Assembly (NCBI GenBank): GCA_963664435.2
Contig: CAXXKM010000001.1
Location: forward strand, 672,001 to 736,000
Reading direction: 5' to 3'
Length of the DNA: 64,000 nucleotides
Source: Longimicrobiales bacterium
GTDB lineage: Bacteria > Gemmatimonadota > Gemmatimonadetes > Longimicrobiales > Gaopeijiaceae
Shown: positions 9,857-39,950 of the stretch, piece after piece
Layout: each line of letters begins with the position of its first letter
Position numbering within the stretch: position 1 is the first letter of the stretch
Position numbers and translations under genes: made by a program
Notes under the pieces: generated by a model
The model's database searches: none
Told to the model about the DNA's origin: nothing
What the model saw: the letters and a program-made list of their open reading frames with translations, nothing else

Positions 9857-10013
9857 TTCGTGTGCGCCGCGACCACCGCGTCCGCCGACCCCTCTTAGGC
9901 GATCCTACGGATACCCGGATCTCCTGCCAACGCCCGCAACCGGGCGAAGCCGAGGAAACACTCCGACGCCGCCCCGAACCCCGACACCGACACCTCGTCG
10001 GGCTGAGCGTGAG
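9854..10013 (-). repeat. Degenerate direct duplicate of an internal tctC segment (7861-8044)
   Basis: Shared blocks such as TTCGTGTGCGCCGCG, CGCCCGCAACCGGGCGAAGCCGAGGAAA and CCGACGCCGCCCCGAACCCCGACA. The copy lacks the 24 bp between the two GCGCCGCG repeats (7871 and 7895). Confidence 0.85.
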
Positions 10014-11956: not shown

Positions 11957-14900
11957 TCACGACGGCTCCCCCGCCCGCGCCAGCAAGTCTGCGAAGTTGT
12001 ACAGAACGCCGGTCGCGCCAAAATCCGGCTCTCGCCGGAAGGGGTGTCGTAGGTAGTGGACCCGGTGTCCACCCTTCTCCAGGAACTCCACGATTGCCAG
12101 GATGTAGTCATCTGGCTTGTTGAGGGAAAACAGAATCTCGTTTCGGGTGACCGTGATCGTCGGTGCCCCCTCCACCCGGCCCTTCACCTCAATGAACCGA
12201 AGCCGACCCGTTTCGGGGACCCGGCTCTCAATGTCGTACCCCAGCTTCTCGAACTCCCGGTCCGTGGGATCGAACCCCATACCGCGCTCGACATCCATGA
12301 TGATTTCTCGGGCGCGAGCCGCGATGGCCTGCGTATCGGTGACTGCAGCCGTCTTCTTCTCTTGCCGCCCGGCGATCCTGTCCAATAGCCCCTTGGGCAC
12401 GACCAGCATTCCGCCCAGCACGACCGGTGGCCCGGCTGAGATCCGCCGCGCCAGAGCCAGCTCTTCGAGCCGTTCCTGCAACCTGGCCTGCAACTGGTCG
12501 GCGCGCTTCGCCGCCTCACGTGAATTGAGCCGCGCGTTCGGGTGACCCGCCTTCTCGCGGAGCTTCAAGTCCTCGGCACGGTGGTCCCAGTAGGAGATTT
12601 CCTTCGTGAGCCGATCCTTGACTGCCGCCTCGGTCTTGTCGATGGCCGACATCCTGGCATCTCGAATCTCCCTCAAGTGCTCTGGCACCACATGCGCAGC
12701 AGCATACGCCTCGGCCTGACCCTCAAGCTCCTGGTTGATCCAGGCACAATCGGGGAGGCCGAGGATGTCGTCGGGCCAGGGTTCGTCCGGGGCGAGCGGC
12801 CGGAAGTCGAGGTATGGAGCGTACCGCACGTGGCCCCGCGCACCTTCCGGGCCAAAGTCGAGGTAGATCATCTGCTTTGAGATGATCCGCTCCTCACCCG
12901 CTGGCGTCGGTCGGCCGTCGTGAACCGAGTGCTCAAGGTAAAGGAGGACACGCGCTTCCACGCCGTGGTCGCTTTCGTCGACCAACACTGCACCACGCTT
13001 CAAGAGGGTGCGGTTCCGCTCCAGAGTCAGATCGAGCACGGCGTCGAGTAGCGGGTGACCCGGACAGACGAAGGCGGCTTGCGCCTGTCCGCGCGGTGCC
13101 ACCAGAGCCTTCTCGAACGCGATGCGCTCGTAGCGGACGGATACAGGCTCGCGCGCGCCCATGTCCCTGGCACGCTTTCGCACAGCAGCGGGCACCCGCG
13201 AGATCTGATACCGGCGCGGCTCGCGCTGCCTGGCCGAACCACCCAGTTGCTTGAACGCCGCCAAGAAGAACGATTCGATGAAATGGGGCTGCAGGCGTCT
13301 CGCGTCTGCACGTTCCATCTCTTCTCGGACCGCGTGCAGGCGGCTGGTGTCCATCGAGTCCTTGGCCAAAGCGTGCTCATACATGAGCCCACGCAACCGG
13401 TCCCGATCCAGCGCCTGGGAGACCACGGTGTTGAGATGGGCCCGCACCTCCGGCCTCTCCCCAAAGCGAATCGCCCTGACCAGGAGGTCCTTCAGGGACC
13501 GTCCCTCGAACTGGACCTGTCCGAGCACATCGAAGACCTGCCCGCCCAGAGCTTGCCGCTCGGTCTCCAGCTTGTCAAGCAGCGTGCGGTAGACCTTGCC
13601 TTCCCGCGTGTCTTCGGCGAGGAGATTCCACAGGTGACAGACTTCGGTCTGACCGATGCGATGGATGCGTCCGAAGCGCTGCTCCAGCCGATTAGGGTTC
13701 CACGGCAGATCGTAGTTCACCATCAGATGGGCGCGCTGCAGGTTGATCCCCTCGCCAGCCGCATCGGTGGCGAGCAGCACCCTGACCTTGGGATTGTGGC
13801 GGAAGGCTTCTTGCGCCTCCAGCCGGTTGGGCCGGTTCAGCCCTCCGTGAATGACAACCACGGCCTCGGGTCGCCCGATCAACGTGGTGATCCGGTCGTT
13901 CAGGTAGTTGAGCGTGTCCTTGTGTTCGGTGAAGATGACGAGCTTCTGACCCGGCGAAGGCTTGGGTGGCGGGACATCGCCCGCTCCGTAACGAACTGCG
14001 GGCTCGTTGATCCGGGACGCGAGAGCCGCCGGGGTGAAGATCTTGCCAAGAAGGCCAGCCAACTCCCGCCACTTGGTGTCGTCGCTGCGGTTCAGGACCT
14101 GTCGAGCAAGCTGCTCAAGCCCATGCAGCGTGTCTATTTCCGCCCGAAGTTCATCGATTGACCTGGCGGCCGTGGCCCGATCCATCACCTCGGCTTCGGT
14201 GGCTTCGAATTCGCCCTCGGGAGCATCTTCCAGATCTTCGAGGTCTTCCAAGTCCAGTTCGGGAGCGCCGAACACCGGCGGGTAGCCAGTTGTCGCATCC
14301 CGGAGCTGTTCCAATTCCTTCAGCCGGTCCTGGAGGCGATGCCGGCGCCTTAGCAGCGATTGGTAGATTGCCTGGGGCGATGAGGCGAGTCGGCGCTGGA
14401 GGATCGTCAGGGCGAACCCGACGGTTGTGCGCTTCTTTCCGTCGAGCCTCTCGGCACGATCGAACTCCCGTTGTACGTAATGAGTGACCGCGTCGTACAG
14501 AGAAGCCTCGGCGGACGAGAGCTTGTAAGGGACCGTGTAGGCCCGGCGCACCGGGAAAAGCGGAGTGCCGTCGAACTTCAGCAACTCTTCCTTCACCATG
14601 CGGCGCATCAGATCCGAGGTATCGGTGCGGTGAACGCCGGTGCGGAAACGGCCCTCGAACCGATCGCCGTCCAGCAACGCCATGAAGAGTTGGAAATCGT
14701 CCTCCTTGCCGTTGTGCGGCGTCGCCGTCATGAGGAGGAAGTGGCGGGTCAGGCGGCCGAGGAGCTGTCCCAAGTGGTATCGCTTCGTGTACTTGACCTT
14801 CCTACCGAAATAGGTCGCCGACATCTTGTGCGCTTCGTCGCACACGATCAGATCCCAGCGGCAATCCGGCGCTTTCAACAACTCCTGGACCTCTTCGTTA

Positions 14901-15526
14901 CGGGACAGCATATCCAGGCGCGCGATCACCAAATCGTTCTTCTCAAACCAGTTCTCCGGCCGCGCCGCTTGTAGTGCCTCGCTGGTGTAGAGCGCAAAGG
15001 CAAGATGGAAGCGCGTCTCAAGTTCCTCCTGCCACTGCTCGGCCAGGCTGCCGGGACAGACGACCAGACAGCGCTCGAGGTCTCCGCGGGCGATCAACTC
15101 CTTCATGAGCAGCCCCGCCATGATCGTTTTCCCGCTCCCGGGATCGTCGGCGAGCAGGAAGCGGAGGGGCTGGCGGGGCAGCATCGACTCATAGACGGCC
15201 GTGATCTGATGGGGAAGAGGCTCGACCAGGGACGTATGGACTGCGAGGAGGGGATCGAAAAGGTGAGCGAGGCGGATGCGCTGGGCTTCGGAGACGAGGC
15301 GGAAAAGAGCACCGTCGGCGTCGAAGGCCCACGGGCGGGCGTGAGCGCTGGCTTCGAGGCTGGTTTCGTCGCTCCGGTACAGGATCTTGGTGTTGACCGC
15401 ATCCGAGAGGGTCCGATAGGTGACCTGAACGGCCTGTGATCCCAACCACTTCGTGGCCAAGATCGTCACGGGTCCTTCCGGGTCAATACCCTCTACTGCA
15501 GCGTGCTGAAGGTTTTCGAGCTTCAC
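11957..15526 (-). CDS. SNF2-family helicase with C-terminal DUF3883 (NO VEIN-type PD-(D/E)xK) domain
   Basis: LLADDPGSGKT, DEAH, TATP, TDAAGEGINLQ and QRFGRIHRIGQ; C-terminal GYDIES...FIEVKG...TRNE. Confidence 0.92.
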   Translation of the reverse strand: MKLENLQHAAVEGIDPEGPVTILATKWLGSQAVQVTYRTLSDAVNTKILYRSDETSLEASAHARPWAFDADGALFRLVSEAQRIRLAHLFDPLLAVHTSLVEPLPHQITAVYESMLPRQPLRFLLADDPGSGKTIMAGLLMKELIARGDLERCLVVCPGSLAEQWQEELETRFHLAFALYTSEALQAARPENWFEKNDLVIARLDMLSRNEEVQELLKAPDCRWDLIVCDEAHKMSATYFGRKVKYTKRYHLGQLLGRLTRHFLLMTATPHNGKEDDFQLFMALLDGDRFEGRFRTGVHRTDTSDLMRRMVKEELLKFDGTPLFPVRRAYTVPYKLSSAEASLYDAVTHYVQREFDRAERLDGKKRTTVGFALTILQRRLASSPQAIYQSLLRRRHRLQDRLKELEQLRDATTGYPPVFGAPELDLEDLEDLEDAPEGEFEATEAEVMDRATAARSIDELRAEIDTLHGLEQLARQVLNRSDDTKWRELAGLLGKIFTPAALASRINEPAVRYGAGDVPPPKPSPGQKLVIFTEHKDTLNYLNDRITTLIGRPEAVVVIHGGLNRPNRLEAQEAFRHNPKVRVLLATDAAGEGINLQRAHLMVNYDLPWNPNRLEQRFGRIHRIGQTEVCHLWNLLAEDTREGKVYRTLLDKLETERQALGGQVFDVLGQVQFEGRSLKDLLVRAIRFGERPEVRAHLNTVVSQALDRDRLRGLMYEHALAKDSMDTSRLHAVREEMERADARRLQPHFIESFFLAAFKQLGGSARQREPRRYQISRVPAAVRKRARDMGAREPVSVRYERIAFEKALVAPRGQAQAAFVCPGHPLLDAVLDLTLERNRTLLKRGAVLVDESDHGVEARVLLYLEHSVHDGRPTPAGEERIISKQMIYLDFGPEGARGHVRYAPYLDFRPLAPDEPWPDDILGLPDCAWINQELEGQAEAYAAAHVVPEHLREIRDARMSAIDKTEAAVKDRLTKEISYWDHRAEDLKLREKAGHPNARLNSREAAKRADQLQARLQERLEELALARRISAGPPVVLGGMLVVPKGLLDRIAGRQEKKTAAVTDTQAIAARAREIIMDVERGMGFDPTDREFEKLGYDIESRVPETGRLRFIEVKGRVEGAPTITVTRNEILFSLNKPDDYILAIVEFLEKGGHRVHYLRHPFRREPDFGATGVLYNFADLLARAGEPS

Positions 15527-15550
15527 AGGGTTAGCATCCGCCTCGGTCTT

Positions 15551-17944
15551 TCAGGCTGCCATTCGCCAACCCGAGCTGATGCGACCGGTCCTCGTCCGCT
15601 CGCTCGATCCACCAAACTGGATGCGCCCAGCGCGGAACCTCCCGTAGCGGGTGTATACCGCCATGCCGGGGCCGATGGCTGCCTGCGCGAGGTCTACGGG
15701 GGCGATGTTGCCGGACTGGAGGAGGTAGAGGGCTTGCGGGAGTTCGGAGCGGAGGGCGGTGAGGAATTCGCGGCGGGTGGCGAGTGGGGCGTTGGCGGGC
15801 CGGCGGCGGCAGACGAGGACGATGCTGGAGGCGAGGGCGTTGGTGCCTCTGCTGATCATGCGATTCGCGAGCTCGGTTCGGATCGGCCAAGTGCCGGTGA
15901 TTGCGAAGCCCGAGCCGATCGCAGCATCCAAGAAGGTCTCCCAGCCGGTGCTTGAAGTCCCTGAGTTGCCCCTCGTCTCTACTTGCTTGAAGGCGTAGTA
16001 GACGGTGATCGGGAATACAGGGTGCGCCTGTTCTGCAAGCCGACTAAGCGCTCGCCTCATGCCAGTGAGGAAGTAGTCCTCAGCGGCGTCCTTTGACCCG
16101 TGTCTGTACGGTGTCGCAACGAGTTCTTCCGCTTTCGGAACCGCTAGCGTGCCGAACAGGTGCGGAAACACGGGTTTCAGGGTGCGTCGTAGCCAAACAT
16201 AGAAGAAGTCCGAGAGATCGGCGTATCCAACGTTGTCGTAGTATGGGGGGTCAGTCGAAACAACTGGCGCGTCACGCCACACTTCATCCTGGGCCGCGGC
16301 TTGGTAGGCTCGACCGAGTCTGCCTGGATACAGCCGGTCCAGGACTCGCATCATATTATTGAGCGAGGTGAGAAGGTCTCCGGCCATACCTCCGAAGACA
16401 TTGGCCTCAGAATAGTCCCAGACCATCGGCAGGGCCTGTCGACCAAAGGTGCCAATCGACTGATTCATCGTACTCTTCCACCGACATAGCGACGATTGAG
16501 CATCGGACAGCTTGCTGACGCCCAACGCCAGATACAGGGCCACAGCCTCGGCGTACGCGCGCGCGCCTGTGCCGCCGTTGCGCAGGGGCAGGTCGTCGTC
16601 AGGAAGGCCTGCGGCTACCGCGTCCCGCCGGATCTGCTGGGTTGCTTCGCCGACGAGATCGGAAAAGGTGGTCAGGGCGACGAGCTGACGCGGCGTGAAG
16701 AGGTCCCGCCACCGAAGCATTCCATATTGCTGAACCCGGAATCCAAGTGCCCGATCCGGCAGGCGCGCCTCTGGTACTCGTTGTGGCTGAGCGCTTCGGG
16801 CGATTACGTCCATTTCCCGTGTTGGCGCCAAGTAGACCCGGCCACGATCACCCTGCGCCACGATGGACATTAGCCGGCTACCCATTCGACCCGCTTTGGC
16901 CTCATCCCTGAGGTACGCGAATGGCATAGGTGCTCCAGACATCATGCACAGGAACTGACTGCCGCTACCGCCGGACTTGGTCCCTCTCCTGCGTAGGGCG
17001 AGATCAGGCGGAGGCCCCGATTTGACCCGGAACCGATACCTCCGTCCCTCAATCACCGGCTCGATATACGCCTCCTTGCCCTTCTTGGTCGACAGCATCC
17101 ATGTGGAAGCAAGCGGAACCTCGACATCAACGAACGCCGGGTTCGGGCTACGCACGGTGCGCGCCCAAAGCCACGCAATCACTGTCAGATTCCGCCCTAG
17201 GTACGGCTTCAGATCCGACCGCTCATTGACCATCTCCGGGGTCACTTCAACCTGCGGGTACAGGTGACCGATCCGGCGTTGGGCCTGGTCGCGCATCCAC
17301 TGCCCGTAGTGCCGGACATCCTCGGCCAGCCCACGGCCGCCTTCCCACTGTCGCTCAACCAGCTCGGCCGCGGATAGCGCCTCCTGGTTGACCGGGGGGG
17401 TGCCGGCGAATCTCGGAGGAATCTCGATCATCGCCTTGCAGATCAGGACCGCCACAGGGTTGAGGTCGCTGGCGTATGCCTCCAACCCGAGCCGTTGCGC
17501 CTCCAGCGGGAGGGCCCCTCCTCCGGCGAAGGGATCGTGGAAGGCCGGCAACTGATCCGGGTTGAACAACTCTTGGGCGCGGGGGTGGCCAGCGTTGGCC
17601 CGGCAAGTTCGCTGCCAGCTCCTATGAATCTCATGGCGTGCCCGGGCGAGCAGATCCTCGTTCGTCGTGTTCTCCCACCGCACCAGCCGCTCCAGAATCC
17701 CGAATAGCCGATCCCGTTCGCGCTCTTGAGACTCCTTGGTGGGGAACCGCTCCGGGTCCGCAGACGGATCGTCCACCATCTGGGCGAAGATGACCGCCCG
17801 CGCGGCGGCCAAAGGTCGTCGCGCCCACCACAGGTGCAACGTGCTGGGATGACCGTGCCGGATGGACTTCTCCCGTCTTGACGCTGAGTTGATTGCGTCG
17901 AGGGGCAGAGCTACCTCAATGAGCTTTTTTCGGGACACCGTCAT
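15551..17944 (-). CDS. DUF1156 adenine DNA methyltransferase, allele A, lacking the ~190-aa C-terminus
   Basis: [10 protein letters not shown]...[21 protein letters not shown] (motif I) and TDPPYYD (motif IV). Homology to allele B ends at YTRYG, followed by about 29 unrelated residues. Confidence 0.88.
15640..15839. repeat. Outer inverted repeat, left copy (pairs with 22167-22366)
   Basis: About 182/200 identical by manual alignment. The terminal 25 bp (15640-15664) are identical to the reverse complement of 22342-22366. Confidence 0.9.
16611..16660. repeat. Inner 50-bp perfect inverted repeat, left copy (pairs with 21349-21398)
   Basis: Its reverse complement GATCTCGTCGGCGAAGCAACCCAGCAGATCCGGCGGGACGCGGTAGCCGC matches 21349-21398 exactly. 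Confidence 0.92.
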
Positions 17945-18047
17945 CAGCGCGTCCGATCCTTATCGAAGAGTCTCGCCAATACCGCGGACGGCGCGTCCGC
18001 GACCTGCGCGCATGCTCCGCCCGCAACACATCGAAGGGAGGAGCACC

Positions 18048-18938
18048 ATGCCCACCACCAGTTTCAGCGGCGGATCAACCGCCCCCAAGCCGATCCCTTT
18101 CGAGACGGTCGCGGAGAAAGCCGTCCGAAGGTACGGGCGCATGTGGAAGCCCGCTACCCTAAAGGTCAACCAGGTCTACTTGCGAAACCAGATCATGCCG
18201 TGGTTCCGAGGGCGGCCAATCGCCGACATCACGCGCGCCGAGGTCCGCCAGTGGTTCGGTACTCTACACGCCACCCCGGCCGCGGCAAACCGCTCCCTTC
18301 CGATTCTCTCCATCATCATGCGGCAGGCGGAGATCTACGGCTATCGGCCGGCAAAGAGCAATCCCTGCAGGCGGATCCGGCGCTACCCGGAGCGGAGGAG
18401 GGAGCGCTTTCTGAACCCCGGTGAGATTCGCCGCCTGGGCCGGGTACTGGCGGACACATCCATGAGAGCGCCCCTCCAGGTGGCCATCGTCCGGCTTCTC
18501 ATGCTGACGGGCTGCAGGCAGAGCGAAATCCGCACGCTGAACTGGGGTGACTATCGCGGAGGCCACCTCTTTCTGCGGGATAGCAAGACCGGTCCCAGAA
18601 CGGTGTGGCTCTCTTCGTCGGCTCGGCGCGTGCTCGACGGATTGCACCGTACGGCCAGCTGTGTCTTTCCCGCTGTCGGCCGTCCCGGATCGATGTCCAC
18701 GGAAACGCTCTACGGGTCATGGCGACGGATTCGCACCGAGGCCGACCTCAGCAGGCTTCGTCTGCACGACCTCCGTCATACCTACGCAAGCTTCGCGCTG
18801 CGGGGCGGCGAATCGGTGGTCATGATTGGCCGATTGCTGGGGCACCGGGATCCCGACACCACCCTCAAGTACACGCACTTCGGGGACGCGATGCTCAGAC
18901 AGGCGGTCGAGAGCGTCGCCACGGTAGTCGGGGAATGA
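18048..18938 (+). CDS. Tyrosine recombinase 1 (no arm-binding domain)
   Basis: TGCRQSEI (R), DSKTG (K), HDLRHTYAS (HxxR) and LLGH...TTLKYTH (H,Y). RBS GGGAGGAG before ATG 18048. Confidence 0.92.
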   Translation: MPTTSFSGGSTAPKPIPFETVAEKAVRRYGRMWKPATLKVNQVYLRNQIMPWFRGRPIADITRAEVRQWFGTLHATPAAANRSLPILSIIMRQAEIYGYRPAKSNPCRRIRRYPERRRERFLNPGEIRRLGRVLADTSMRAPLQVAIVRLLMLTGCRQSEIRTLNWGDYRGGHLFLRDSKTGPRTVWLSSSARRVLDGLHRTASCVFPAVGRPGSMSTETLYGSWRRIRTEADLSRLRLHDLRHTYASFALRGGESVVMIGRLLGHRDPDTTLKYTHFGDAMLRQAVESVATVVGE

Positions 18939-18941
18939 CCG

Positions 18942-19820
18942 ATGGCTGCGCCGAGCTTTGAGGACTTCGTGTCGGGATCCTGGAGAACGGCCTGCTACCA
19001 CCGTTGCAAGCCCTCAACCAGGCAGCGGTTGGATAGCGCGCTTCGCACGCAGTTGCTACCGACTTTCGGTGTACATCGGCTTGACGAGATTCCTCCCTCA
19101 GCGGTCCACGAATGGTTCGACCGCTACAGCCGGACAGCACCCGCGGGTGCGAACCGAATTCTCGACATCCTTAAGCAGATCTACAACTACGCGATCGAGT
19201 GCGGGCTCGTGGACGCGAACCCGGCCCACGGCGTCAGACACAATCCGAGACCCAGAGTCACCCGCTTTCTCTCGCAGGACGAGTTGGCGCGCGTGCACGC
19301 GGCACTGGATGCCCACAGAGGTCGCGGATCCGGTCAACAGCAGGTGGCCATCATCCGCCTCCTTCTGCTGACGGGTTGCCGCAAGGGCGAAATGGTGTGC
19401 CTTCGCTGGGACGAGGTGGACGGAAGGGTCCTGCGTCTGGCTGACAGCAAGACGGGACCGCGGACGGTCTTCCTGAGCAAGGCCGCCCGGGAGTTGATTG
19501 CCCGGCAACCGCGTACCGATAGCCCCTACGTCTTCCCGTCGCTGAAGGATGGATCCCGGCATCGATCCAACGAACTGTCCCTGTGGCGGAAGGTCCAGCG
19601 CGAAGCTGAAATCGACGATGTGAGGCTACACGACCTGCGGCACACCTTCGCGAGCCACGCGGTCATGCAGCGCGTTCCCCTGCCGGTCTTGTCCCAACTC
19701 TTGGGGCATAGCCGCGACCGGATGGCAATGAGGTATGCCCACATCGGTGACCGGGAAGCGGAGGCGGCCGCAGAGCGGGTCGGTACCCAGATTGCAGCAC
19801 TGCTGGGCGACCTTGGCTGA
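18942..19820 (+). CDS. Tyrosine recombinase 2 (paralog, no arm-binding domain)
   Basis: TGCRKGEM, DSKTG, HDLRHTFAS and LLGH...AMRYAH. Starts 3 nt after the recombinase 1 stop. Confidence 0.92.
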   Translation: MAAPSFEDFVSGSWRTACYHRCKPSTRQRLDSALRTQLLPTFGVHRLDEIPPSAVHEWFDRYSRTAPAGANRILDILKQIYNYAIECGLVDANPAHGVRHNPRPRVTRFLSQDELARVHAALDAHRGRGSGQQQVAIIRLLLLTGCRKGEMVCLRWDEVDGRVLRLADSKTGPRTVFLSKAARELIARQPRTDSPYVFPSLKDGSRHRSNELSLWRKVQREAEIDDVRLHDLRHTFASHAVMQRVPLPVLSQLLGHSRDRMAMRYAHIGDREAEAAAERVGTQIAALLGDLG

Positions 19821-20016
19821 GGTTCAAGCCCGATGTCGAACCGGTATCCGGTGCGTGGTGTGCAGCTTATGTCCCAAAATGACAACGACTTGACCTCACA
19901 CGTGACCACGCCCGCTTGGCGGGAAGCATCTGCGGGCCATTGACGAGCGAGCTTTGTGCCGGGCACACTTGTCAGCGATTCGTTCTATCGTTCGCCCCTG
20001 CAACCATACTGGCCAT

Positions 20017-22935
20017 ATGTCCCATATGGATTCCCATATCGTCCGGACTCCGCCCGTTAGCCAGCGCAAGAAACTCATTGAAGTTGCGCTCCCGCTCGAC
20101 GCTATCAACGATGCCTCGAGGCGCGAAAAATCGATCCGGCACGGCCATCCCAGCACCCTTCATCTCTGGTGGGCGCGCCGACCTCTGGCGGCTGCGCGCG
20201 CCGTCATCTTCGCCCAAATGGTGGATGATCCTTCGGAGGACCCCGATCGGTTCCCGACGGAGGAGACGAGAACGCGCGAACGGACGCGCTTGTTCCGGCT
20301 GATCGAAGAACTCGTGACTTGGGAGAACACGACGAATCAGGAAGTCTTGAAGCGCGCTCGCGAGGAAATCCTGCGAAGCTGGCGGAGATCGTGCGCTGAC
20401 AACTCAGATCACCCACGGGCGACGGAACTCTTCGATCCTGAAAAATTGCCGGCGTTCCACGATCCGTTCGCCGGGGGTGGTGCCCTACCGCTGGAGGCTC
20501 AGCGCCTCGGACTGGAAGCTCACGCAAGCGATCTCAACCCCGTGGCGGTGTTGATCAACAAGGCCATGATCGAGGTTCCACCGAGGTTCGCTGGTCGCGC
20601 GCCAGTGCACGCCAGTGCTCGCCCCGATGCACCGAGGACGCCTGGGGTATTGATCGATCGGGATTGGCGGGGGGCGCAGGGCCTGGCCGAAGATGTCAGG
20701 CGTTACGGCAAGTGGATGAGGGACGAAGCCGAAAAACGGATCGGAGGGCTGTATCCGAGGATTGCCGTGACCGGGGAAATGGCGCGCGAGCGTCCCGACC
20801 TGAGGTCGTATGTGGGCCGGGACCTCACCGTGATCGCGTGGCTGTGGGCGCGGACAGTTCCGAGTCCCAATCCGGCGTTCGGAGATGTGGAGGTTCCCTT
20901 GGCGTCAACCTTCATGTTATCGACCAAGAAGGGAAAGGAGGCATACGTTGAGCCGGTGATCCGGGACCATGAGTATCGGTTCGACGTTCGCGCCGGCCCA
21001 CCGCCGGCCCGCGCCGCAGCAAGGAAGGGCACGAAACTGTCGCGTGGGGCGAACTTCCGCTGCCTTCTGTCGGGCGCGCCGCTGGCACCTGCCTACATCA
21101 AGTCAGAGGGCCGCGCCGGTCGAATGGGAGCACGGCTGATGGCGATTGTGGCGCAGGGGGACCGTGAGAGGGTGTATCTGAATCCGACCGATGACCACGC
21201 GGAGACCGCGCAGCGGGCGCGGCCGACGTGGCGGCCGGATTTGAGTCAGCCCAAGAACCCCCGCTGGTTCTCACCTCCGGACTACGGCCTCTCCACCTTT
21301 GGCGACCTCTTCACCCCCCGCCAGCTAGTGGCCCTTACCACCTTCTCGGATCTCGTCGGCGAAGCAACCCAGCAGATCCGGCGGGACGCGGTAGCCGCGG
21401 GCCTTGCCGACGATGACGTTCCATTACGTGATGGAGGCCTCGGCGCGCGCGCGTATGCCGAGGCTGTGGCCCTGTATCTGGGCATCACGGTGAGTAGGCT
21501 CGCCAACCGCCAAGCCACCCTGTGCTTTTGGGACCGGATGCGCGAAGGCGTACAGCAGGTGTTCGCGCGCCAAGCCCTACCAATGGTTTGGGACTACTGC
21601 GAAGGTAATCCCTTCAGCGCTTCCAGCGGCAATTGGGTTGTTCAGTTAAAGTTTCCCGCGAAGATGATTGAGGCCGCCCCGGCAATGATCCCGGGCCATG
21701 CTGAGCAAGCAGATGCACGCGTGAGTACGTTGGCTTTCAGTCGAGTGGTTTCGACGGACCCTCCGTACTATGACAACATCGGATACGCGGATCTCTCCGA
21801 TTTCTTCTACATTTGGTTGCGTCGTTCGCTGAAGCCGTTGTTTCCCGGTCTCTTTGCCACGCTGGCAGTGCCGAAGGCCGGGGAACTCGTTGCCACACCG
21901 TATCGGCACGGAAACAAGGAAGCTGCAGAGGGATTCTTCCTTGAGGGCATGACCAAGGCGACCCGCCATCTTGCAGAGCAGGCCCATCCAAGCTTCCCGG
22001 TCACGATCTACTACGCCTTTAAACAGTCGGAGGGCAAAGGCGGCGCGGGTGTCGTCAGCACCGGCTGGGAAACGTTCCTGGACGGCGCAATGCGATCAGG
22101 GTTCGCGATCACGGGGACGTGGCCTATACGCACCGAAAACGTGGCTGCACTCAAGAAGAACGTCGCCGCCCTCGCCTCAAGCATCGTCTTGGTCTGCCGC
22201 CGCCGCCCCACCAACGCACCCCTCGCCACCCGCCGGGAGTTCCTCACCGCCCTCCGCTCCGAGCTGCCGCAAGCCCTCGACCTCCTCCAGTCCGGCAACA
22301 TCGCCCCGGTTGACCTCGCGCAGGCGGCCATCGGGCCGGGAATGGCGGTATACACCCGCTACGGGAAGGTACTCGACGCCAACGGACAGCCCATGAAGGT
22401 CCGCGAGGCCTTGGCCATGATCAACCAGATCCTCGACGAATCGCTCGCCGAGCAGGAAGGCGACTTCGACGCGGATACTCGCTGGGCGCTTGCCTGGTTC
22501 GAGGAGCGTGGCTTCGAGGAAGGGGAGTTCGGAGTGGCAGAGATGCTGTCCAAGGCCAAGAACACCAGCGTGCAGGGGTTGGTGCAGGCAGGAATCCTCG
22601 AATCGCGCGCGGGCAAGGTCCGCCTGCTGCGACCTTCCGAGTTGCCTGCGGAATGGGATCCGTCGACCGATATCCGGCTCACAACTTGGGAGATGGTCCA
22701 CCACCTGATTAGACTCCTCGAAAGCGACGGGGAGGTAGCGGCAGCGGGTCTCGTCAGGCACTTGGGGAGCGTCGCCGATGTCGCTCGCGATCTGGCCTAC
22801 AGGCTCTTTTCCATCGCGGAACGAAAGAAGCGGGCTACGGAGGCACTTCAGTACAACGGTCTGGTCGGAAGTTGGGCGGAAATCAGGCGGATGGCGGGCA
22901 CGGAGGCGGCCGCAGAACAGACGGAGCTGTTGTAA
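20017..22935 (+). CDS. DUF1156 adenine DNA methyltransferase, allele B, full length
   Basis: Same DUF1156 N-terminus, DPFAGGG and TDPPYYD, plus the full C-terminus (DFDADTRWALAWF...ALQYNGLVGSW). Start uncertain (20017 or 20026). Confidence 0.92.
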   Translation: MSHMDSHIVRTPPVSQRKKLIEVALPLDAINDASRREKSIRHGHPSTLHLWWARRPLAAARAVIFAQMVDDPSEDPDRFPTEETRTRERTRLFRLIEELVTWENTTNQEVLKRAREEILRSWRRSCADNSDHPRATELFDPEKLPAFHDPFAGGGALPLEAQRLGLEAHASDLNPVAVLINKAMIEVPPRFAGRAPVHASARPDAPRTPGVLIDRDWRGAQGLAEDVRRYGKWMRDEAEKRIGGLYPRIAVTGEMARERPDLRSYVGRDLTVIAWLWARTVPSPNPAFGDVEVPLASTFMLSTKKGKEAYVEPVIRDHEYRFDVRAGPPPARAAARKGTKLSRGANFRCLLSGAPLAPAYIKSEGRAGRMGARLMAIVAQGDRERVYLNPTDDHAETAQRARPTWRPDLSQPKNPRWFSPPDYGLSTFGDLFTPRQLVALTTFSDLVGEATQQIRRDAVAAGLADDDVPLRDGGLGARAYAEAVALYLGITVSRLANRQATLCFWDRMREGVQQVFARQALPMVWDYCEGNPFSASSGNWVVQLKFPAKMIEAAPAMIPGHAEQADARVSTLAFSRVVSTDPPYYDNIGYADLSDFFYIWLRRSLKPLFPGLFATLAVPKAGELVATPYRHGNKEAAEGFFLEGMTKATRHLAEQAHPSFPVTIYYAFKQSEGKGGAGVVSTGWETFLDGAMRSGFAITGTWPIRTENVAALKKNVAALASSIVLVCRRRPTNAPLATRREFLTALRSELPQALDLLQSGNIAPVDLAQAAIGPGMAVYTRYGKVLDANGQPMKVREALAMINQILDESLAEQEGDFDADTRWALAWFEERGFEEGEFGVAEMLSKAKNTSVQGLVQAGILESRAGKVRLLRPSELPAEWDPSTDIRLTTWEMVHHLIRLLESDGEVAAAGLVRHLGSVADVARDLAYRLFSIAERKKRATEALQYNGLVGSWAEIRRMAGTEAAAEQTELL
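21349..21398. repeat. Inner 50-bp perfect inverted repeat, right copy
   Basis: Exact reverse complement of 16611-16660. Confidence 0.92.
22167..22366. repeat. Outer inverted repeat, right copy
   Basis: Pairs with 15640-15839; strongly C-skewed on the coding strand in both alleles. Confidence 0.9.
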
Positions 22936-22994
22936 ACCATCCCGTTTTGGCAGAATCCGTAGCTGTGAGGATCCGCGAGCCCGAGGGCTGAGAG

Positions 22995-24170
22995 ATGAGA
23001 ATCGAGAATATCGAGATCGAGAACTACCGGCTGTTTCGCCGCGCAGAGCTACGGAATCTACCCCGGCTCACCATCGTCGTGGGTGCGAACGGTTCGGGGA
23101 AGTCCACGCTCTTCGACGTGTTCACCTTCCTCAAGGATGCTCTCACCCACAACGTTGCGACTGCCGTAACGCGGCGTGGGGGGTTTCGGGAGCTGGTCTC
23201 GCGCGGGAGCGAGGGCCCGATCGGAATCACCGTCCAGTTCCGCGAAAGTGGTGGGCGGCTTGCGACCTACGTCCTCGAAGTCACCACCAGAAACGGTCGA
23301 GTCGTCGTTGGCCGCGAGGTGCTCCGGTATCGGCGCGGACGGTACGGGAAGCCTTGGCATTTCGTCGACTTCATTTGTGGCGAAGGATATGCCATCACCA
23401 ATGAGTCGGTCTACGGTCAGGAGGGAGTTCAGGAAGCGCGCGAGGAGTTCAAGCTCGACGATCCGAGTGTGCTCGCCATCAAGGGTTTGGGACAATTCCA
23501 GCGGTTTCGAGTGGTATCGGAGTTCCGTAGCTTGATCGAGAACTGGCACATCTCGGACTTCCACATCTCGGATGCGAGACCGAGCGTGGAGGCTGGATTC
23601 GCCGAGCATCTGTCCACCCGAGGCGACAACGTGGCGCAGGTCGCTCAGTACCTCTATCAGCACCATCCGGAATGCTTTGATCGAGTTCTCGAGGCGATGA
23701 GTTCACGGGTACCCGGGGTCAGCCGAGTCGAAGCAAGGCCGACGGAAGACGGTCGGCTGGTGCTGCGCTTTCAGGACCACTCGTTCCGAGATCCGTTCAT
23801 CGCCCGCTTCGTCAGCGACGGTACGATCAAGATGTTCGCGTACCTGATTCTCCTCTACGATCCCAAGCCGCATCCGCTGCTGGCCGTGGAAGAGCCTGAG
23901 AACCAGTTGTACCCGGACCTTTTGCTGGAACTCGTTGAGGAGTTCAGGGACTACGCGAGGCGCGGTGGCCAAGTCTTCGTTTCGACCCATTCTCCGTTCT
24001 TCCTGAATGGGGCCGGACTGGACGAGGTCTTCTGGTTGGCCAAGGAAAACGGCTTCACAAAGGTGCGCAGAGCGTCCACCGACGACCTGCTCAAGGGGTT
24101 GGTCGCGGAGGGCGACAAGTTGGGCACGCTGTGGAGGCAAGGTCTCTTCGAAGGAGCGGGACCGCGATGA
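22995..24170 (+). CDS. ABC-type AAA ATPase (AAA_15/AAA_21, OLD/AbiE-like)
   Basis: IENYRLF, GANGSGKST (Walker A), SDGT signature, VEEPENQLYP (Walker B/D-loop) and STHSP. Confidence 0.9.
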   Translation: MRIENIEIENYRLFRRAELRNLPRLTIVVGANGSGKSTLFDVFTFLKDALTHNVATAVTRRGGFRELVSRGSEGPIGITVQFRESGGRLATYVLEVTTRNGRVVVGREVLRYRRGRYGKPWHFVDFICGEGYAITNESVYGQEGVQEAREEFKLDDPSVLAIKGLGQFQRFRVVSEFRSLIENWHISDFHISDARPSVEAGFAEHLSTRGDNVAQVAQYLYQHHPECFDRVLEAMSSRVPGVSRVEARPTEDGRLVLRFQDHSFRDPFIARFVSDGTIKMFAYLILLYDPKPHPLLAVEEPENQLYPDLLLELVEEFRDYARRGGQVFVSTHSPFFLNGAGLDEVFWLAKENGFTKVRRASTDDLLKGLVAEGDKLGTLWRQGLFEGAGPR

Positions 24171-24739
24171 GCAGAGTAGTGTTTCTGCTCGAAGAGTACT
24201 CGATGAAAACGCTTCTGGACGGGCTCCTTCCCCGGCTGTTTCCGCAGCTGGTGTTTCTGTGCGTGCCTCATGAAGGCAAGGGCGATCTGGAAAAGAGCAT
24301 CCCAAGAAAGCTCCGAGGCTGGCGGGAGCCCGGCGTTCGCTTCGTCGTAGTGAGAGACAATGACCGGGGTGATTGCCTTGGCCTGAAGAACCACCTTCGT
24401 GATCTGTGCTCCGTCCGCCCGGCCGAGGACGTCGTGGTCCGCATCGTGTGCCAGGAACTCGAAGCCTGGTACCTAGGCGAGCCCGACGCCTTGGCTGAAG
24501 CGTTCGAGAAGGAATCCCTCCGCAGGATCGGTTCTCGATCGCGCTTGCGCCAGCCCGATGCCGTCCCATACCCGGCGAAAGAGCTGGCCAGGCAGATTCC
24601 AAGGTTCCAGAAGGTGTCCGGTGCGCGTCTTCTCGCCGAACACCTTACACGCGAGCGAAACCGATCCCCGAGCTTTCATGCCATGATGGACGGCGTCGAA
24701 CGACTCGCCTCACGGCTTATCTCCACCCACCAAACCTGA
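24167..24739 (+). CDS. DUF4276 family TOPRIM-like protein
   Basis: VVFLLEEYSM, VVVRDND, ELEAWYLG and NRSPSF motifs. ATGA overlap with the ATPase. Confidence 0.82.
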   Translation: MSRVVFLLEEYSMKTLLDGLLPRLFPQLVFLCVPHEGKGDLEKSIPRKLRGWREPGVRFVVVRDNDRGDCLGLKNHLRDLCSVRPAEDVVVRIVCQELEAWYLGEPDALAEAFEKESLRRIGSRSRLRQPDAVPYPAKELARQIPRFQKVSGARLLAEHLTRERNRSPSFHAMMDGVERLASRLISTHQT

Positions 24740-24742
24740 CAC

Positions 24743-27700
24743 ATGGCTATCACCAACCACGAGCGCGTCGGCAAGGCGATGGAGCTTCTCCGCGGCGGCC
24801 TGGGCTCCTTCGTTGAACGTGAAATCAAGACCGCGCACCCTCCCAGGACCACCGTAGCCCGCGAAACTCTTCGGTACTTGGACAACCACGAGCTGGCCAG
24901 GCGGCCCATCGCGGACTGGGACGCGCACGCGCTCCTGCTTCTGATGTGGAAGTCCTGGAACACGGTCTTCAGAACCACGCTGGGCCACGCCGAACGCAAC
25001 TATGTGTCGGAACTTCGTGACGCCAGGAATCGGTGGGCTCACCAGCAGAGCTTCTCCACGGACGACGCCCATCGCGTGCTGGACTCGACCCATCGGCTGT
25101 TGACGGCAATCTCGGCTCCCGAGGCGGCGGAGGCCGACAAGATGAGGATGGATCTCCTCCGGCGTCGGTTCAACGAGCAGGCTCGTCACATCAGGCGGCA
25201 AACAACCCAGACAGCCCTCGAAATCGGCGCCACATCGTCTCTTCCCGCTTGGCGGGACGTGGTTGACCCCCACCCGGATGTTGCGAGCGGCAGGTACAAC
25301 CAGGCCGAGTTTGCTGCGGATCTCTGGCAGGTGTATCGGGGAGAGGGCTCGCACGAGTACCGGAACCCGGTCGAGTTCTTCCGGCGCACCTATCTGACCG
25401 AGAGCTTGCGTGCCATGCTTATCGGCGCGGTACGCCGAGTTACTTCCGGCAGAGGCGACCCGGTCATCCAGCTCCAGACCAACTTCGGTGGTGGCAAGAC
25501 CCATTCCATGCTGGCGCTGTACCACCTCTTCTCGGGTACTCCTCCGACGAGCCTCGCGGGAGTCGATGAGCTTATGACCGAGGCCAAGGTCGCAGGACTC
25601 CCATCGGTTCGCCGAGTCGTCCTGGTCGGCAACAAGATCTCGCCTGCGCGGCCAGATCGAAAACCGGACGGTACGATTGTCCACACCCTGTGGGGTGAGC
25701 TCGCGTGGCAGCTCGGCGGCCGGGATGCCTACCGGAGGATTGCAGCTGACGACGAGAAGGGCACCAGCCCCGGTGACGCCATTCGCGGTCTGCTCAACGA
25801 CTTCGGTCCGTGCGTGGTGCTCATCGACGAGTGGGTAGCGTACGCGAGGCAGCTGCACGACCGCAGCGACTTGCCGGCGGGGAGCTTCGAGACCCAGTTC
25901 ACCTTCGCCCAAACCCTGACCGAGTCGGCGAAGGCGGCGTCCAACTGCCTCCTCGTCATCAGCCTTCCGGCTTCGGACACGGCTGCGGCGCCGCACACTC
26001 GGGCCGACGACGTGGAGGTAGGGGGCGTTCGCGGCCGGGAAGCCCTGAACCGATTGAGCAACGTCGTAGGCCGGCTGGAATCGGCCTGGCATCCCGCCAC
26101 GGCCGAAGAAGGCTTCGCGATCGTCAGACGGCGTCTCTTCGCGCCGATGACCGAAGAGGCGTATAAGCAGCGCGATGCGGTCGCACGGACCTTCGCGGAC
26201 TTCTATCGGCGCCAACACCAGGAATTCCCTGTTGAGTGCCGCGACGGGGAGTATGAGCGGCGATTGAAGGAGGCGTACCCCATCCACCCCGAAGTCTTCG
26301 ACCGGTTGTACGAAGACTGGTCCACGCTGCTGAGGTTCCAACGCACGCGGGGCGTACTGCGGCTGATGGCCTCGGTCATTCACAGCCTGTGGGAAAAGGG
26401 AGACAAGAGCCCGCTCATCATGCCCTCCCTGGTGCCGATCGACGATGCGCGCGTGCGCTCCGAACTCACGAGCTATCTGCCCGACCGCTGGGTGCCGATC
26501 ATCGAATCGGACGTGGACGGGCCGAACTCCCTTCCCCTCCGCATGGATGGCCAGTACAGCAACCTGGGCAAGCTGAATGCCTGCCGACGCGTTGCCCGGA
26601 CGGTCTATCTCGGATCCGCACCGCTGACGGAGGCGGCCCGAAAGGGCATGGACGACCGCCGGGTAAAGTTGGGGTGCGTGCTCCCGGGAGAGTCGGCAGC
26701 AATCTTCGGTGACGCCTTGCGACGTTTGGCTGGCGCGGCAACCTACCTATACCAGAACGGCCCCCGCGTCTGGTACGACACGCAACCCACGGTCACCAAG
26801 CTCGCACGGGACAGGGCTGCGCAGCTGGAACGCGATCCCGACAAAGTTGCCGAGGAGATTGGACGCCGCGTGCAGACGGATGCGGCGAAGCGAGGCGACT
26901 TCCATGGCGTCCACTGCTTTCCGCGCGAGCCGGCGGATGTTCCGGATGACCCGAGCGTTCGTCTGGTGATTCTCGGCACTGACGCGCACTACATCAGGGG
27001 TGGCAACAGCCCCGCTGAAGCTGCGGCTCGCCAGTTGCTGGACTCACGCGGGGCGGGGCCTCGCCTTTGCCGCAACGCGGTCGTATTCCTCGCGCCTGAC
27101 AGGACGCGGCTGCAGGACCTTGAGGGCACGGTACGAATGTACCTCGCCTGGCAATCAATCGTCGGCGAGAAGGAGACCCTGAATCTCGATCCTTTCCAGG
27201 TAAAGCAGGCAGAGACCCGTCTGAAGGAGGAGGAGGGACGGGTGAAGGGCCAGATCCCCGAGGTGTTCCAATGGCTTCTGGTTCCGGTGCAGAGCAAGCC
27301 GGAGGACCAGGTGGGCTGGGAAGCTATGCGACTGATGGGAACGGGTGAGCTGGCCGTCCGGGCGAGCACGAGGCTCAGGCGTGAGGAGCTACTCGTTATC
27401 AGCTATGGGAGTACTCGCCTCCGCATGGATCTCGATCGTATTCCTCTGTGGCAGGACCACGTGGAGATTCGCCAGTTGGCGGACCACTATTCGCGATACA
27501 CGTATCTGCAGCGAGTTGAGGATCCCTCGGTGATCGCGGAGGCTGTGCGCGATGGGGTCGGGCTGCTGACGTGGGAGACGGACACGTTCGCCTACGCGGA
27601 AGGCTTTGACGAGGAGAAGGGACGTTACCTGGGGCTCCGTGCAGGCGAGGCTTTGCAACAGCCCTTGACGGCCGACAGCCCCGGCTTGGTGGTTCGACCG

Positions 27701-28060
27701 AAGATTGCCCGGAAGCAGATGGATGAAGAGGTGCGGCCGGAGCCCGGACCGGGGCCAGGACCAGAGCCGGGGCCAGGGCCCGGACCGGAGCCGGGACCAG
27801 GACCAGGACCGGATCCCCAGCCGGCTCCGCGGCGCTTCCACGGAAGCGTCGATATCGATCCAGTCCGGGCAGGCAAGGTGGTGGGTCAGATTGCCGAAGA
27901 GGTCGTTTCGCATCTGACCGGTCTGGTGGGATCGAGAGTAGAACTAACCCTCGAGATCGAGGCGGAGATCCCGGATGGAGCTCCGGAGCATGTGGTTCGC
28001 ACCGTTACGGAGAACGCGAGGACGCTGCGCTTCACGAGTCAGGAGTTTGAGGAGGAGTAG
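24743..28060 (+). CDS. DUF499 AAA+ ATPase with N-terminal Swt1-like HEPN domain
   Basis: ELRDARNRWAH (RxxxxH), PHPDV...EFAADL, FGGGKTH, LIDEW, YPIHPE and FQRTRGVLRL. Confidence 0.9.
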   Translation: MAITNHERVGKAMELLRGGLGSFVEREIKTAHPPRTTVARETLRYLDNHELARRPIADWDAHALLLLMWKSWNTVFRTTLGHAERNYVSELRDARNRWAHQQSFSTDDAHRVLDSTHRLLTAISAPEAAEADKMRMDLLRRRFNEQARHIRRQTTQTALEIGATSSLPAWRDVVDPHPDVASGRYNQAEFAADLWQVYRGEGSHEYRNPVEFFRRTYLTESLRAMLIGAVRRVTSGRGDPVIQLQTNFGGGKTHSMLALYHLFSGTPPTSLAGVDELMTEAKVAGLPSVRRVVLVGNKISPARPDRKPDGTIVHTLWGELAWQLGGRDAYRRIAADDEKGTSPGDAIRGLLNDFGPCVVLIDEWVAYARQLHDRSDLPAGSFETQFTFAQTLTESAKAASNCLLVISLPASDTAAAPHTRADDVEVGGVRGREALNRLSNVVGRLESAWHPATAEEGFAIVRRRLFAPMTEEAYKQRDAVARTFADFYRRQHQEFPVECRDGEYERRLKEAYPIHPEVFDRLYEDWSTLLRFQRTRGVLRLMASVIHSLWEKGDKSPLIMPSLVPIDDARVRSELTSYLPDRWVPIIESDVDGPNSLPLRMDGQYSNLGKLNACRRVARTVYLGSAPLTEAARKGMDDRRVKLGCVLPGESAAIFGDALRRLAGAATYLYQNGPRVWYDTQPTVTKLARDRAAQLERDPDKVAEEIGRRVQTDAAKRGDFHGVHCFPREPADVPDDPSVRLVILGTDAHYIRGGNSPAEAAARQLLDSRGAGPRLCRNAVVFLAPDRTRLQDLEGTVRMYLAWQSIVGEKETLNLDPFQVKQAETRLKEEEGRVKGQIPEVFQWLLVPVQSKPEDQVGWEAMRLMGTGELAVRASTRLRREELLVISYGSTRLRMDLDRIPLWQDHVEIRQLADHYSRYTYLQRVEDPSVIAEAVRDGVGLLTWETDTFAYAEGFDEEKGRYLGLRAGEALQQPLTADSPGLVVRPKIARKQMDEEVRPEPGPGPGPEPGPGPGPEPGPGPGPDPQPAPRRFHGSVDIDPVRAGKVVGQIAEEVVSHLTGLVGSRVELTLEIEAEIPDGAPEHVVRTVTENARTLRFTSQEFEEE
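27737..27823 (+). repeat. Coding (PEPGPGPG)n low-complexity linker
   Basis: Encodes PEPGPGPGPEPGPGPGPEPGPGPGPDPQP with synonymous variation between units. Confidence 0.8.
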
Positions 28061-28181
28061 CGGGGCGCAGCCCCGGCGTAACCCGTGATCCGCTCAGGCA
28101 GGCTCTTCATAGTATCACCGCTCTCCGTCGCATAGTATCATCGCATTGCGGGGTCAAGACCTGCCCCGCGGAGACCCGCTG

Positions 28182-31100: not shown

Positions 31101-31434
31101 CGACCAGGTGAAGATGACGCCCGTCCAGGCGGAACGCGCCTCCACCCTCGGCGACGGCTTCGCGCTGTGCGTGGTCCCCCTCGATGACGACGTGCCGACC
31201 GCCGACACGATCCACGAGAGACTGCGTGTCGTGTTCGGGATCGGAGCGCGCCTCGAGTCGGCGCTGTCCGGCTACAAGTCCATGCGAAAAGCCGCGGACG
31301 CCGCCCGCGAACCGCGGGGCGCGGTCGAACTTGAGATCCGGGAAGGCGAGGTGCGCTTCCGGATCGGCCGTCCGGTCTGGGACGAAGGACTGCCGTTCCG
31401 TCAGGCAGTCGATCGGTTCGGAGGCCGCGACTGA
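28182..31434 (+). pseudogene. Sacsin-like GHKL ATPase with C-terminal DUF3883-like nuclease, split by a +1 frameshift near 29060
   Basis: WELLQNARDA, HDGKPF and GQFGSGFLATHLLS in the first frame; VNSRQFKPREDRDGI and C-terminal GSDFEV...LIEVKST in the second. Removing one G from GGG at 29060-29062 gives continuous LGLPATVNSRQF. Confidence 0.75.
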
Positions 31435-39878: not shown

Positions 39879-39912
39879 CGAGTGGCCTCCGGTTCGGTCG
39901 CAAGGACCGCGC

Positions 39913-39950
39913 GTTTTGCGCGCGATAAATCCAGTTATCGCGCGCAAAAC
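39913..39950. other. Right lox-like recombination site: GTTTTGCGCGCGATAA-ATCCAG-TTATCGCGCGCAAAAC
   Basis: Perfect 16-bp arms. Spacer ATCCAG is the reverse complement of the left spacer CTGGAT, so the two sites are inverted. Confidence 0.9.

Follow-up and report, generated by a model that had tools for sequence, protein, structure and literature searches.

Switching of defence methyltransferases by DNA inversion has been described for PglX, DrmMI-like and Type IIG enzymes (Milman et al., 2023; PMC9881135). In that paper, a spare gene copy lacking its 5′ end is the strongest predictor of programmed inversion, and DUF1156 is not listed in Table 1. The PglX inverton in the type 1 BREX system of Lacticaseibacillus rhamnosus resembles the locus described below, in that a defence adenine methyltransferase of BREX kinship carries nested inverted repeats within the gene, lies next to a recombinase and exchanges its middle region (PMC9881135). 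The hsdS invertons, such as pneumococcal SpnIII/cod with PsrA, are alike in having two variable segments, two repeat classes, a tyrosine recombinase and combinatorial alleles (PMC4948785, PMC7096588, PMC7672463). Allele switching by inversion was also confirmed by long reads for other single-chain defence methylases, the DISARM DrmMI-like and Type IIG/Cj0031-like enzymes (PMC9881135).

The published Hma system consists of the helicase-nuclease HmaA, the DUF1156 N6-methyltransferase HmaB and the HEPN-fused HmaC with an embedded HEC-01, as is also found here (PMC11232893, PMC12839542, bioRxiv 2024.01.29.577857). It is treated as a Type-1 BREX-related system in PMC12839542, where the core of the methyltransferase is said to contain an inserted target-recognition domain (TRD) and its C-terminal region three HTH-like domains. 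When T4 was passaged on a host expressing HmaB, Hma defence was unchanged, and phage integrases near 19.1% of hmaA genes were read as a sign of mobility (PMC11232893). Terms for inversion and recombinases were absent from the searched text of PMC11232893, bioRxiv 2024.01.29.577857, bioRxiv 2025.10.09.681413 and PMC12839542. No report of inversion of hmaB or DUF1156 was found in a search that covered few subscription journals, and the supplementary tables of PMC9881135 may list such loci. Here we describe a cassette that is real, conserved, rare and mobile, and for which the best explanation is a nested inverton changing the specificity of the Hma methyltransferase. Positions refer to the window, the whole stretch of 64,000 nucleotides that was analysed.

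The Locus Carries an Hma System

The gene order at the locus was hmaA, a truncated hmaB, two tyrosine recombinases, a full hmaB, HEC-01 and hmaC (Table 1). PADLOC matched HmaA over its whole length (1602 bits; Pfam SNF2, Helicase_C and NOV_C), the two HmaB alleles (1497 and 1234 bits; Pfam DUF1156) and HmaC (1089 bits; Pfam DUF499 and HEPN_Swt1). By sequence matches, the locus is an Hma (Type-1 BREX-related) system. The initial annotation had placed the DUF1156, DUF499 and SNF2 genes in a restriction-like system. These genes were confirmed, and the system was corrected to Hma rather than the DUF3780-containing restriction-like system: DUF3780 was absent among 15 proteins scanned, and the scores for NCBIfam DUF1156_antiphage (112 and 124, cut-off 1000) and DUF499_antiphage (132, cut-off 1200) did not reach either family. 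No Type I subunit (hsdR/hsdM/hsdS) was present among the PADLOC or Pfam matches of the locus, no PglX among the 8 and 9 PADLOC families matching the two hmaB alleles, and no BrxC or PglZ match in 14 proteins scanned.

Downstream of the truncated hmaB, hmaA lies on the minus strand, in the orientation opposite to hmaC. The co-directional hmaA-hmaB-hmaC order, which is typical and not strict, is thus not seen here. Both hmaB copies have start codons. A search for sigma-70-like promoters found 0 against 1.8 expected, and Rfam and tRNA searches gave no match.

Table 1. Features of the hmaB locus and their positions in the window
Feature	Position	Strand	Details	Basis or reading
hmaA	11957..15526	-	SNF2 helicase with C-terminal NOV_C (DUF3883) nuclease	PADLOC HmaA E=0, Pfam
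hmaB allele A	15551..17944	-	797 aa; DUF1156, FAGGG, N-segment a1, middle segment a2 with DPPY	
Outer inverted repeat, left arm	15640..15839		182/200; perfect core 15640-15664 at the truncation point	presumed outer crossover site
Inner inverted repeat, left arm	16528..16567		39/40; perfect 16528-16552	presumed inner crossover site
Perfect 50-bp tract, left copy	16611..16660			read as homogenisation tract beside the inner site
Tyrosine recombinase 1	18048..18938	+	296 aa; R157 K180 H240 R243 H266 Y275; too short for arm-binding domain	
Tyrosine recombinase 2	18942..19820	+	292 aa; R147 K170 H230 R233 H256 Y265	
hmaB allele B	20017..22935	+	972 aa, full length; b1, b2 and the sole C-terminus	
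Perfect 50-bp tract, right copy	21349..21398			
Inner inverted repeat, right arm	21442..21481		perfect 21457-21481	
Outer inverted repeat, right arm	22167..22366		perfect core 22342-22366	
Single common hmaB 3′ end	22367..22935	+	most of the C-terminal helical region	
HEC-01 ATPase	22995..24170	+	ABC/AAA ATPase, embedded in Hma	PADLOC
HEC-01 partner	24167..24739	+	DUF4276 (TOPRIM-like)	PADLOC
hmaC	24743..28060	+	DUF499 ATPase with N-terminal Swt1-like HEPN	PADLOC, Pfam

Two hmaB Alleles Contain Nested Inverted Repeats

Two divergent DUF1156 alleles flanking two intact tyrosine recombinases had been proposed in the initial annotation, and their coordinates and motifs were found again. The alleles share 68% protein identity across the first 769 residues of A, and dS between them is about 1.5 in the N half. 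Allele A follows B up to YTRYG, as had been noted, and then enters an unrelated tail of 29 aa; the last ~190 aa are missing, and the C-terminus is present only in B. The FAGGG and DPPY catalytic motifs are intact in both alleles, and all four variable-loop pairs quoted before are present.

The perfect 50-bp pair and the outer pair (182/200 identical) were likewise recovered. Two perfect 25-bp pairs had been missed. The first is the core of the outer repeat, which stops exactly where A leaves homology. The second is an inner pair, extending to 39/40 identity over the arms given in Table 1. In total, exact tracts of 50, 28, 25, 25 and 23 bp are shared by the alleles, all in codon register. Within the 50-bp tract, identical residues use the same codon in 16/16 cases, compared with ~35-55% elsewhere, so this tract is far above chance.

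The nested layout of two repeat pairs stood. The 50-bp tract was rejected as the conserved inner crossover, since it is identical between alleles in only 8/20 loci, a count in which the compared stretches differ in length. Crossover at the inner site probably takes place in the 25-bp repeat 16528-16552/21457-21481. Among the signs of programmed inversion used by Milman et al. (2023), inverted repeats lying in frame inside two coding sequences and an adjacent intact recombinase are present. The typical, not obligatory, 5′-less asymmetry is not: the spare hmaB copy keeps its 5′ end and lacks its 3′ end.

Predicted Products of Inversion at the Two Sites

The layout suggests a switch in which the two hmaB copies stand back to back, each with its own start, and the 3′ end is attached to only one of them. 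Outer-site inversion (MAVYTRYG codons) would transfer the 3′ end to the other copy. Inversion at the inner site (AVxxYL codons) would swap the N-terminal half, together with the target-recognition insert, relative to the middle segment. From the present state, b1b2, the inner inversion, at whichever of the two inner repeats, is predicted to give a1b2, the outer a1a2 and both together b1a2. The frames were open in silico in all four inversion states, in line with the initial annotation's proposal of up to four full-length enzymes. Because every state gives a full-length HmaB, no dead intermediate would be formed. The two encoded recombinases would catalyse the flips, and the flips would occur in present populations. 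The variable loops may read DNA, and the states may then differ in methylation motif and hence in what Hma treats as self. We regard it as highly probable that the locus is an active recombinase-driven switch. That it is a recombinase-driven, two-site nested inverton that also changes the DNA specificity of HmaB is a narrower claim, which we consider probable.

Synonymous Codons Are Constrained at Both Sites

In 15 non-homogenised loci, synonymous identity between alleles peaked at aa 481-485 (0.97) and aa 776-780 (0.96). Codons 484-487 were identical between alleles in 18/18 loci and codons 778-782 in 14/17. In an unbiased scan of 931 codon columns, aa 487 ranked first and aa 778 second; these scores are rankings, not probabilities, because the sequences are related and each locus holds two homogenised copies. 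TAT was used at aa 487 in 42/42 sequences from invertible loci (background 0.28), and the third base was A at aa 778 in 22/38 (background 0.10). In single-copy hmaB (29 segments), T was found in 13/26 at aa 487 and C in 15/26 at aa 778. The top-ranked constrained synonymous positions thus coincide with the two repeat boundaries, and single-copy hmaB lacks the constraint.

By pattern match, TGTAT was present at the inner site in 30/30 invertible copies and 4/19 controls, and (A/T)TACAC at the outer site in 28/32 invertible copies and 2/21 controls, some single-copy controls being judged on retrieved flanks alone. The outer motif is missing from four copies, those of G584 and G653, two loci in which neither copy is truncated. 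In the window, the inner left arm holds the invariant TGTAT as the mate of 21473-21477. The inner and outer motifs are approximately reverse complements of each other. If the recombinases act at these boundaries, the TGTAT and GTATACAC motifs would be candidate binding sites for them.

A Distinct Recombinase Pair Accompanies Inverted hmaB Copies

Both recombinases had been called intact, and they proved to have open frames with all six catalytic residues kept (starts and residues in Table 1). The R-K-H-R-H-Y residues of both are invariant in 12/12 aligned relatives. Recombinase 2 starts 3 bp after recombinase 1, and the two are 38% identical. Tyrosine recombinases without an arm-type DNA-binding domain are of the simple invertase or resolvase type. 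The hmaB-linked recombinases have no such domain; in the one widely spaced recombinase pair scanned, it makes up the extra length.

A genome scan with recombinase 1 gave 34 loci and further scans added more, with loci reached twice counted once. The recombinase pairs comprised 24 that were tightly spaced (2-16 bp, estimated) and 15 that were widely spaced (251-285 bp). In the retrieved DNA, hmaB lay beside 23/24 tight pairs compared with 0/15 wide sister pairs, and the sole tight pair without hmaB was on a 3-kb contig. The 24 tight pairs formed one clade in each recombinase subtree (SH-aLRT 97, quick tree only). Two inverted hmaB copies were found in 20 of the 23 tight loci with hmaB, counts that are not independent because the loci are related. 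The remaining three had one copy each (G240 and G012) or rearranged pieces (G698). The layout spans Gemmatimonadota, Acidobacteriota and Verrucomicrobiota. The survey for inverted DUF1156 pairs around recombinases, which had been suggested as a check, hence showed that the layout recurs at about 20 other loci in three phyla.

The nearest relatives of the recombinases are from Longimicrobiales or Gemmatimonadetes, and recombinase identity is 82% between this genome and an Acidobacteriota record. Judged by sequence, the cassette has moved between phyla. The system is rare, because a close recombinase was present in 7/401, 2/201, 1/251 and 3/401 sampled genomes. A metagenome scan (80/352 loci kept) added one short contig with hmaB. 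Among 40 matches listed of 62 in plasmid records, no inverted hmaB pair was seen, and 13 viral contigs with hmaB served solely as single-copy controls. In the single- or tandem-copy loci G006, G576, G596, G634 and G638 (~20 kb examined each), the gene order was the usual one and such recombinases were absent.

In G007 and G003, which belong to the same genus as the genome studied here, the recombinase pair is likewise flanked by two divergent N halves, in each case on a contig ending at the inner repeat. The other two contigs of G007 carry one full and one truncated C half, the truncated one again followed by hmaA. Its perfect repeats, of 41 and 55 bp, share both end boundaries with the 25-mers of the window at a DNA identity of only ~77%. 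All 15 truncated copies examined leave the full copy just after YTRY and enter unrelated tails, one of them continuing for a few codons past YTRY. No int2 match was found in G653, G015, G686 and G696. The central piece is unseen in G653 and G015 because their contigs break at the inner repeat, and this break alone placed G653 in the invertible set. Some loci are damaged, with an insertion in the full copy (L039), frameshifts in the spare copy (L041 and G240) or a frameshift in the tail (L046). Because the position of hmaA varies among invertible loci, the idea that its expression is tied in a fixed way to the truncated copy was rejected.

Cross-Genome Comparison Points to Inversion

In 10 loci the cassette is oriented toward the full copy (window, L039, L041, L043, L044, L045, L046, G256, G667 and G703), and in 4 it is oriented away from it (L052, G289, G660 and G718), leaving out G584, with both copies long, and G708, which is rearranged. 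Both orientations were seen across species only, with a skew of 10 vs 4. In the hypervariable stretch of the middle segment, the full copy of one genome was close to the truncated copy of another: 92% for L041 full and G007 truncated, 86% for L039 full and L043 truncated, 85% for L052 full and G698 truncated, and 76% for G007 full and L039 truncated. The median identity was 36% over 649 cross-genome pairs, and 13/24 pairs at ≥58% identity joined a full with a truncated slot. After YTRYG, the near relative P0122 matches B at 184/189 residues, compared with only 60/71 before it. Natural full-length proteins of the a1b2 type (P0005) and the b1a2 type (P0008 and P0015) were found, none from this species. 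The same loop types are also mixed in single-copy HmaB from unrelated habitats, and chimeric proteins are therefore no proof of inversion.

The N half of the truncated copy gave dN/dS values of 0.085-0.123 (five orthologues), compared with 0.095-0.144 for the full copy, indicating that it is under equal purifying selection. Allele A as a decaying stub or an assembly chimera, the refutation named in the initial annotation, is largely refuted by the conserved layout and breakpoint, and these values (~0.1) also speak against it. In L046, G289, G703 and G708, an identical or near-identical middle segment occupies both slots, which is non-reciprocal conversion or assembly collapse, and half of the diversity is thereby removed.

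In one alternative, general homologous recombination and gene conversion would reshuffle the inverted hmaB duplication, with the recombinase pair as passenger or helper. Conversion tracts of 100-930 bp, some covering the whole middle segment or the N halves, and the family-wide mixing of loops in single-copy HmaB fit this explanation, and spnIII rearrangement is reported to be possible without site-specific recombinases (PMC6620402). Against it stand the strict association with one recombinase clade, the same truncation codon in three phyla, fixed rare codons at both boundaries that are missing from single-copy genes, and perfect repeats of only 16-25 bp in some loci. We consider this alternative unlikely. 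The nested two-site inversion first proposed from the window is, on the other hand, supported by the layout, the fixed breakpoints, both orientations, the slot-swapped alleles, the codon constraint and purifying selection.

Contigs from Sequencing Runs

Contigs were compared from 4 of 6 runs holding the stretch; one run holding it is labelled sponge metagenome. Contigs of run X2 bridge hmaA, the tail of allele A and the outer repeat (14705-15834), and contigs of run X5 bridge the B middle segment and the outer repeat into HEC-01 (21453-24380), both with zero differences; the X2 and X5 runs possibly include the source sample. The allele regions were at about half the flank depth in X2, extending into hmaA, which suggests a strain mixture. 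A chimera made in the metagenome assembly, or a decaying stub of an unrelated insertion, might be argued from this depth, but about 20 further assemblies share this layout with its breakpoint, the junctions are bridged and allele A is under selection. That explanation is barely credible.

No inverted junction was seen in the contigs of the 4 runs: 0/7 strand-change joints were in register with a repeat, and these opposite-strand joints resemble homologous loci of other organisms. Contig breaks at 16631, 16640 and 21378 were not counted because the 50-bp repeat alone yields them. A contig of X5 stops precisely at 15664, where the outer core has its inner edge; this fits a branch to the inverted form or a node shared with other organisms and is only a hint. 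Neither the 120 best protein matches nor the clusters holding A and B included a same-species chimera, and these clusters contain no second state.

The switch might be a past one, now frozen in this genome, with allele A kept as a truncated protein or a donor. The second state unseen in contigs and protein clusters is compatible with freezing, as are perfect repeat cores of just 25 bp, an outer repeat with 18 mismatches and a single cassette orientation in the group closest to the window, in all five of its loci on long contigs. The middle segments nevertheless differ among those five loci, the recombinases and site motifs are intact, and the identical 50-bp tract points to recent exchange. 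A frozen state is accordingly quite improbable in our judgement.

Variable Regions of HmaB

Variation among 117 homologues peaks at aa 393-432 and aa 493-572. The first region falls within the insert named TRD in PMC12839542. The second, which is the most variable, follows this insert in a poorly resolved part of the model. A single-sequence model of HmaB was useless (pLDDT 36). The model from 117 sequences (pLDDT 70, pTM 0.48) left the catalytic core unresolved and predicted the TRD insert well, as an alpha+beta module on a helical stalk. The inner repeat maps to this stalk, and the outer site lies near the beginning of the C-terminal helical region. A PDB sequence search with HmaB gave 0 matches, Foldseek with the model gave nothing at E ≤0.001, and VIA gave a best Z of 7.4; none of the three yielded a DNA-bound homologue.

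The variable loops are discrete recurring types, rich in basic and polar residues, and one set lies inside the TRD insert. A conserved switch that swaps two HmaB segments speaks for diversifying selection on them and points to where specificity lies. The flips could instead be real and the four proteins share one DNA target, with something else varying, such as a surface for phage inhibitors or for HmaA/HmaC. Consistent with this, the searches gave no DNA-bound homologue, much of the variation falls beyond the insert annotated as TRD, and the function of HmaB is untested or negative in what PMC11232893 describes. This explanation is nonetheless very unlikely to us, given the intact FAGGG and DPPY in both alleles, the loop types described above, and the parts known to set specificity in methylase invertons being the ones swapped (PMC9881135).

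A more detailed reading, which we put forward tentatively as somewhat unlikely in its entirety, is a mirror-image inverton. Here the paired recombinases without an arm-binding domain would serve one nested site each or act as a heteromer, the copies would be transcribed outward, and the truncated copy would pre-methylate the chromosome. The truncated copy keeps every catalytic motif and both variable segments. If this reading is true, pre-methylation with the incoming motif could allow restriction specificity to change without self-cleavage, and the locus would provide the first natural allelic series for HmaB recognition. The question that the locus bears on is whether HmaB methylates a specific motif marking self for Hma, for which one test in PMC11232893 was negative. 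Four alleles and two short sites make HmaB specificity directly testable.

Comparison with Known Systems

The principle of inversion is known; the target family, the layout with a common 3′ end and the paired recombinases appear undescribed. In contrast to the published Hma loci, the present one has an inverted pair of hmaB copies flanking recombinases, and its hmaA is encoded on the opposite strand. The PglX inverton, as presented in PMC9881135, has single N- and C-termini, so that two inversions are needed and the intermediates with one inversion lack the C-terminus. At the present locus an N half is present in each copy, the 3′ end is the only part in common, and each single inversion is predicted to give a full-length protein. 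Moreover, two recombinases are present and the target is HmaB (DUF1156). Compared with the hsdS invertons, the switched protein is a single-chain methyltransferase and not HsdS, the recombinases are in tandem, and the spare copy lacks the 3′ end, whereas in the described hsdS loci it lacks the 5′ end. The DrmMI-like and Type IIG enzymes belong to other protein families, and their loci typically have a 5′-less spare copy (PMC9881135). Because the layout reported here differs from the 5′-asymmetric pattern that weighs most in the predictor set out in PMC9881135, loci of this kind may be under-counted.

Variation among putatively invertible hmaB loci

The layout of the putatively invertible locus varied among the comparison genomes. 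In both hmaB copies of G660 (C1:293000-308000) and G718 (C1:2102000-2112500), extra sequence was present around aa 455-469, a short way inside the inner site, and the surrounding open frames were long. G007:C6:3375-5003 and G003:C289 contained an AAA ATPase gene as cargo of the putatively invertible segment, positioned between hmaB and recombinase 2, and a gap of similar size was seen in G289. At the ends of G653:C8 and C9 and at G584:C1:3924700-3933800, the outer motif was lost and both hmaB copies were full length; these loci may represent a switch variant with a single site. The middle segment was identical or near-identical in both slots of locus L046 and of genomes G289, G703 and G708, with tracts of 817-2090 bp, indicating either gene conversion or a mixed population collapsed in assembly.

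Two additional, distant DUF1156/DUF499/SNF2 loci were found in the genome holding the window (G000:C2:860000-870200 and G000:C3:53700-79300). Each possessed one methylase and had no close recombinase match.

Genes and mobile elements around the window locus

Features flanking the locus are listed in the table. The split of the TmtA-like gene reflects either a frameshift or an assembly error. The DUF262/HEPN region also gave NsnA and PD-T4-2-like matches in PADLOC. The 150-bp direct copy, 89% identical to part of the upstream transporter gene, was placed between an HTH-IrrE gene and a low-GC DUF6119 gene and may be the left scar of the island. Partial copies of the integrase-core transposase were present elsewhere in the genome.

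Window features outside the putatively invertible locus
Feature	Position	Strand	Remarks
Transporter-gene part matching the direct copy	7895-8044		
Direct copy	9864-10013		150 bp
TmtA-like (Tiamat) gene	28146-31434		directly 3′ of hmaC; two overlapping frames; PADLOC
GmrSD N-terminal (DUF262) gene and HEPN gene	33004-34799	-	low GC
Integrase-core transposase and two further tyrosine integrases	31685-32683, 38895-39947, 47470-48693		

Sister family of recombinase pairs

Loci L048-L067, whose record titles were mostly from Alphaproteobacteria, made up a sister family in which tyrosine recombinases were likewise paired in tandem. Arm-binding domains were found in the one pair scanned. Several pairs often occurred in one genome, and their contexts were varied: one adjoined T7-like capsid genes and a TIR gene, and another adjoined a Type ISP methylase.
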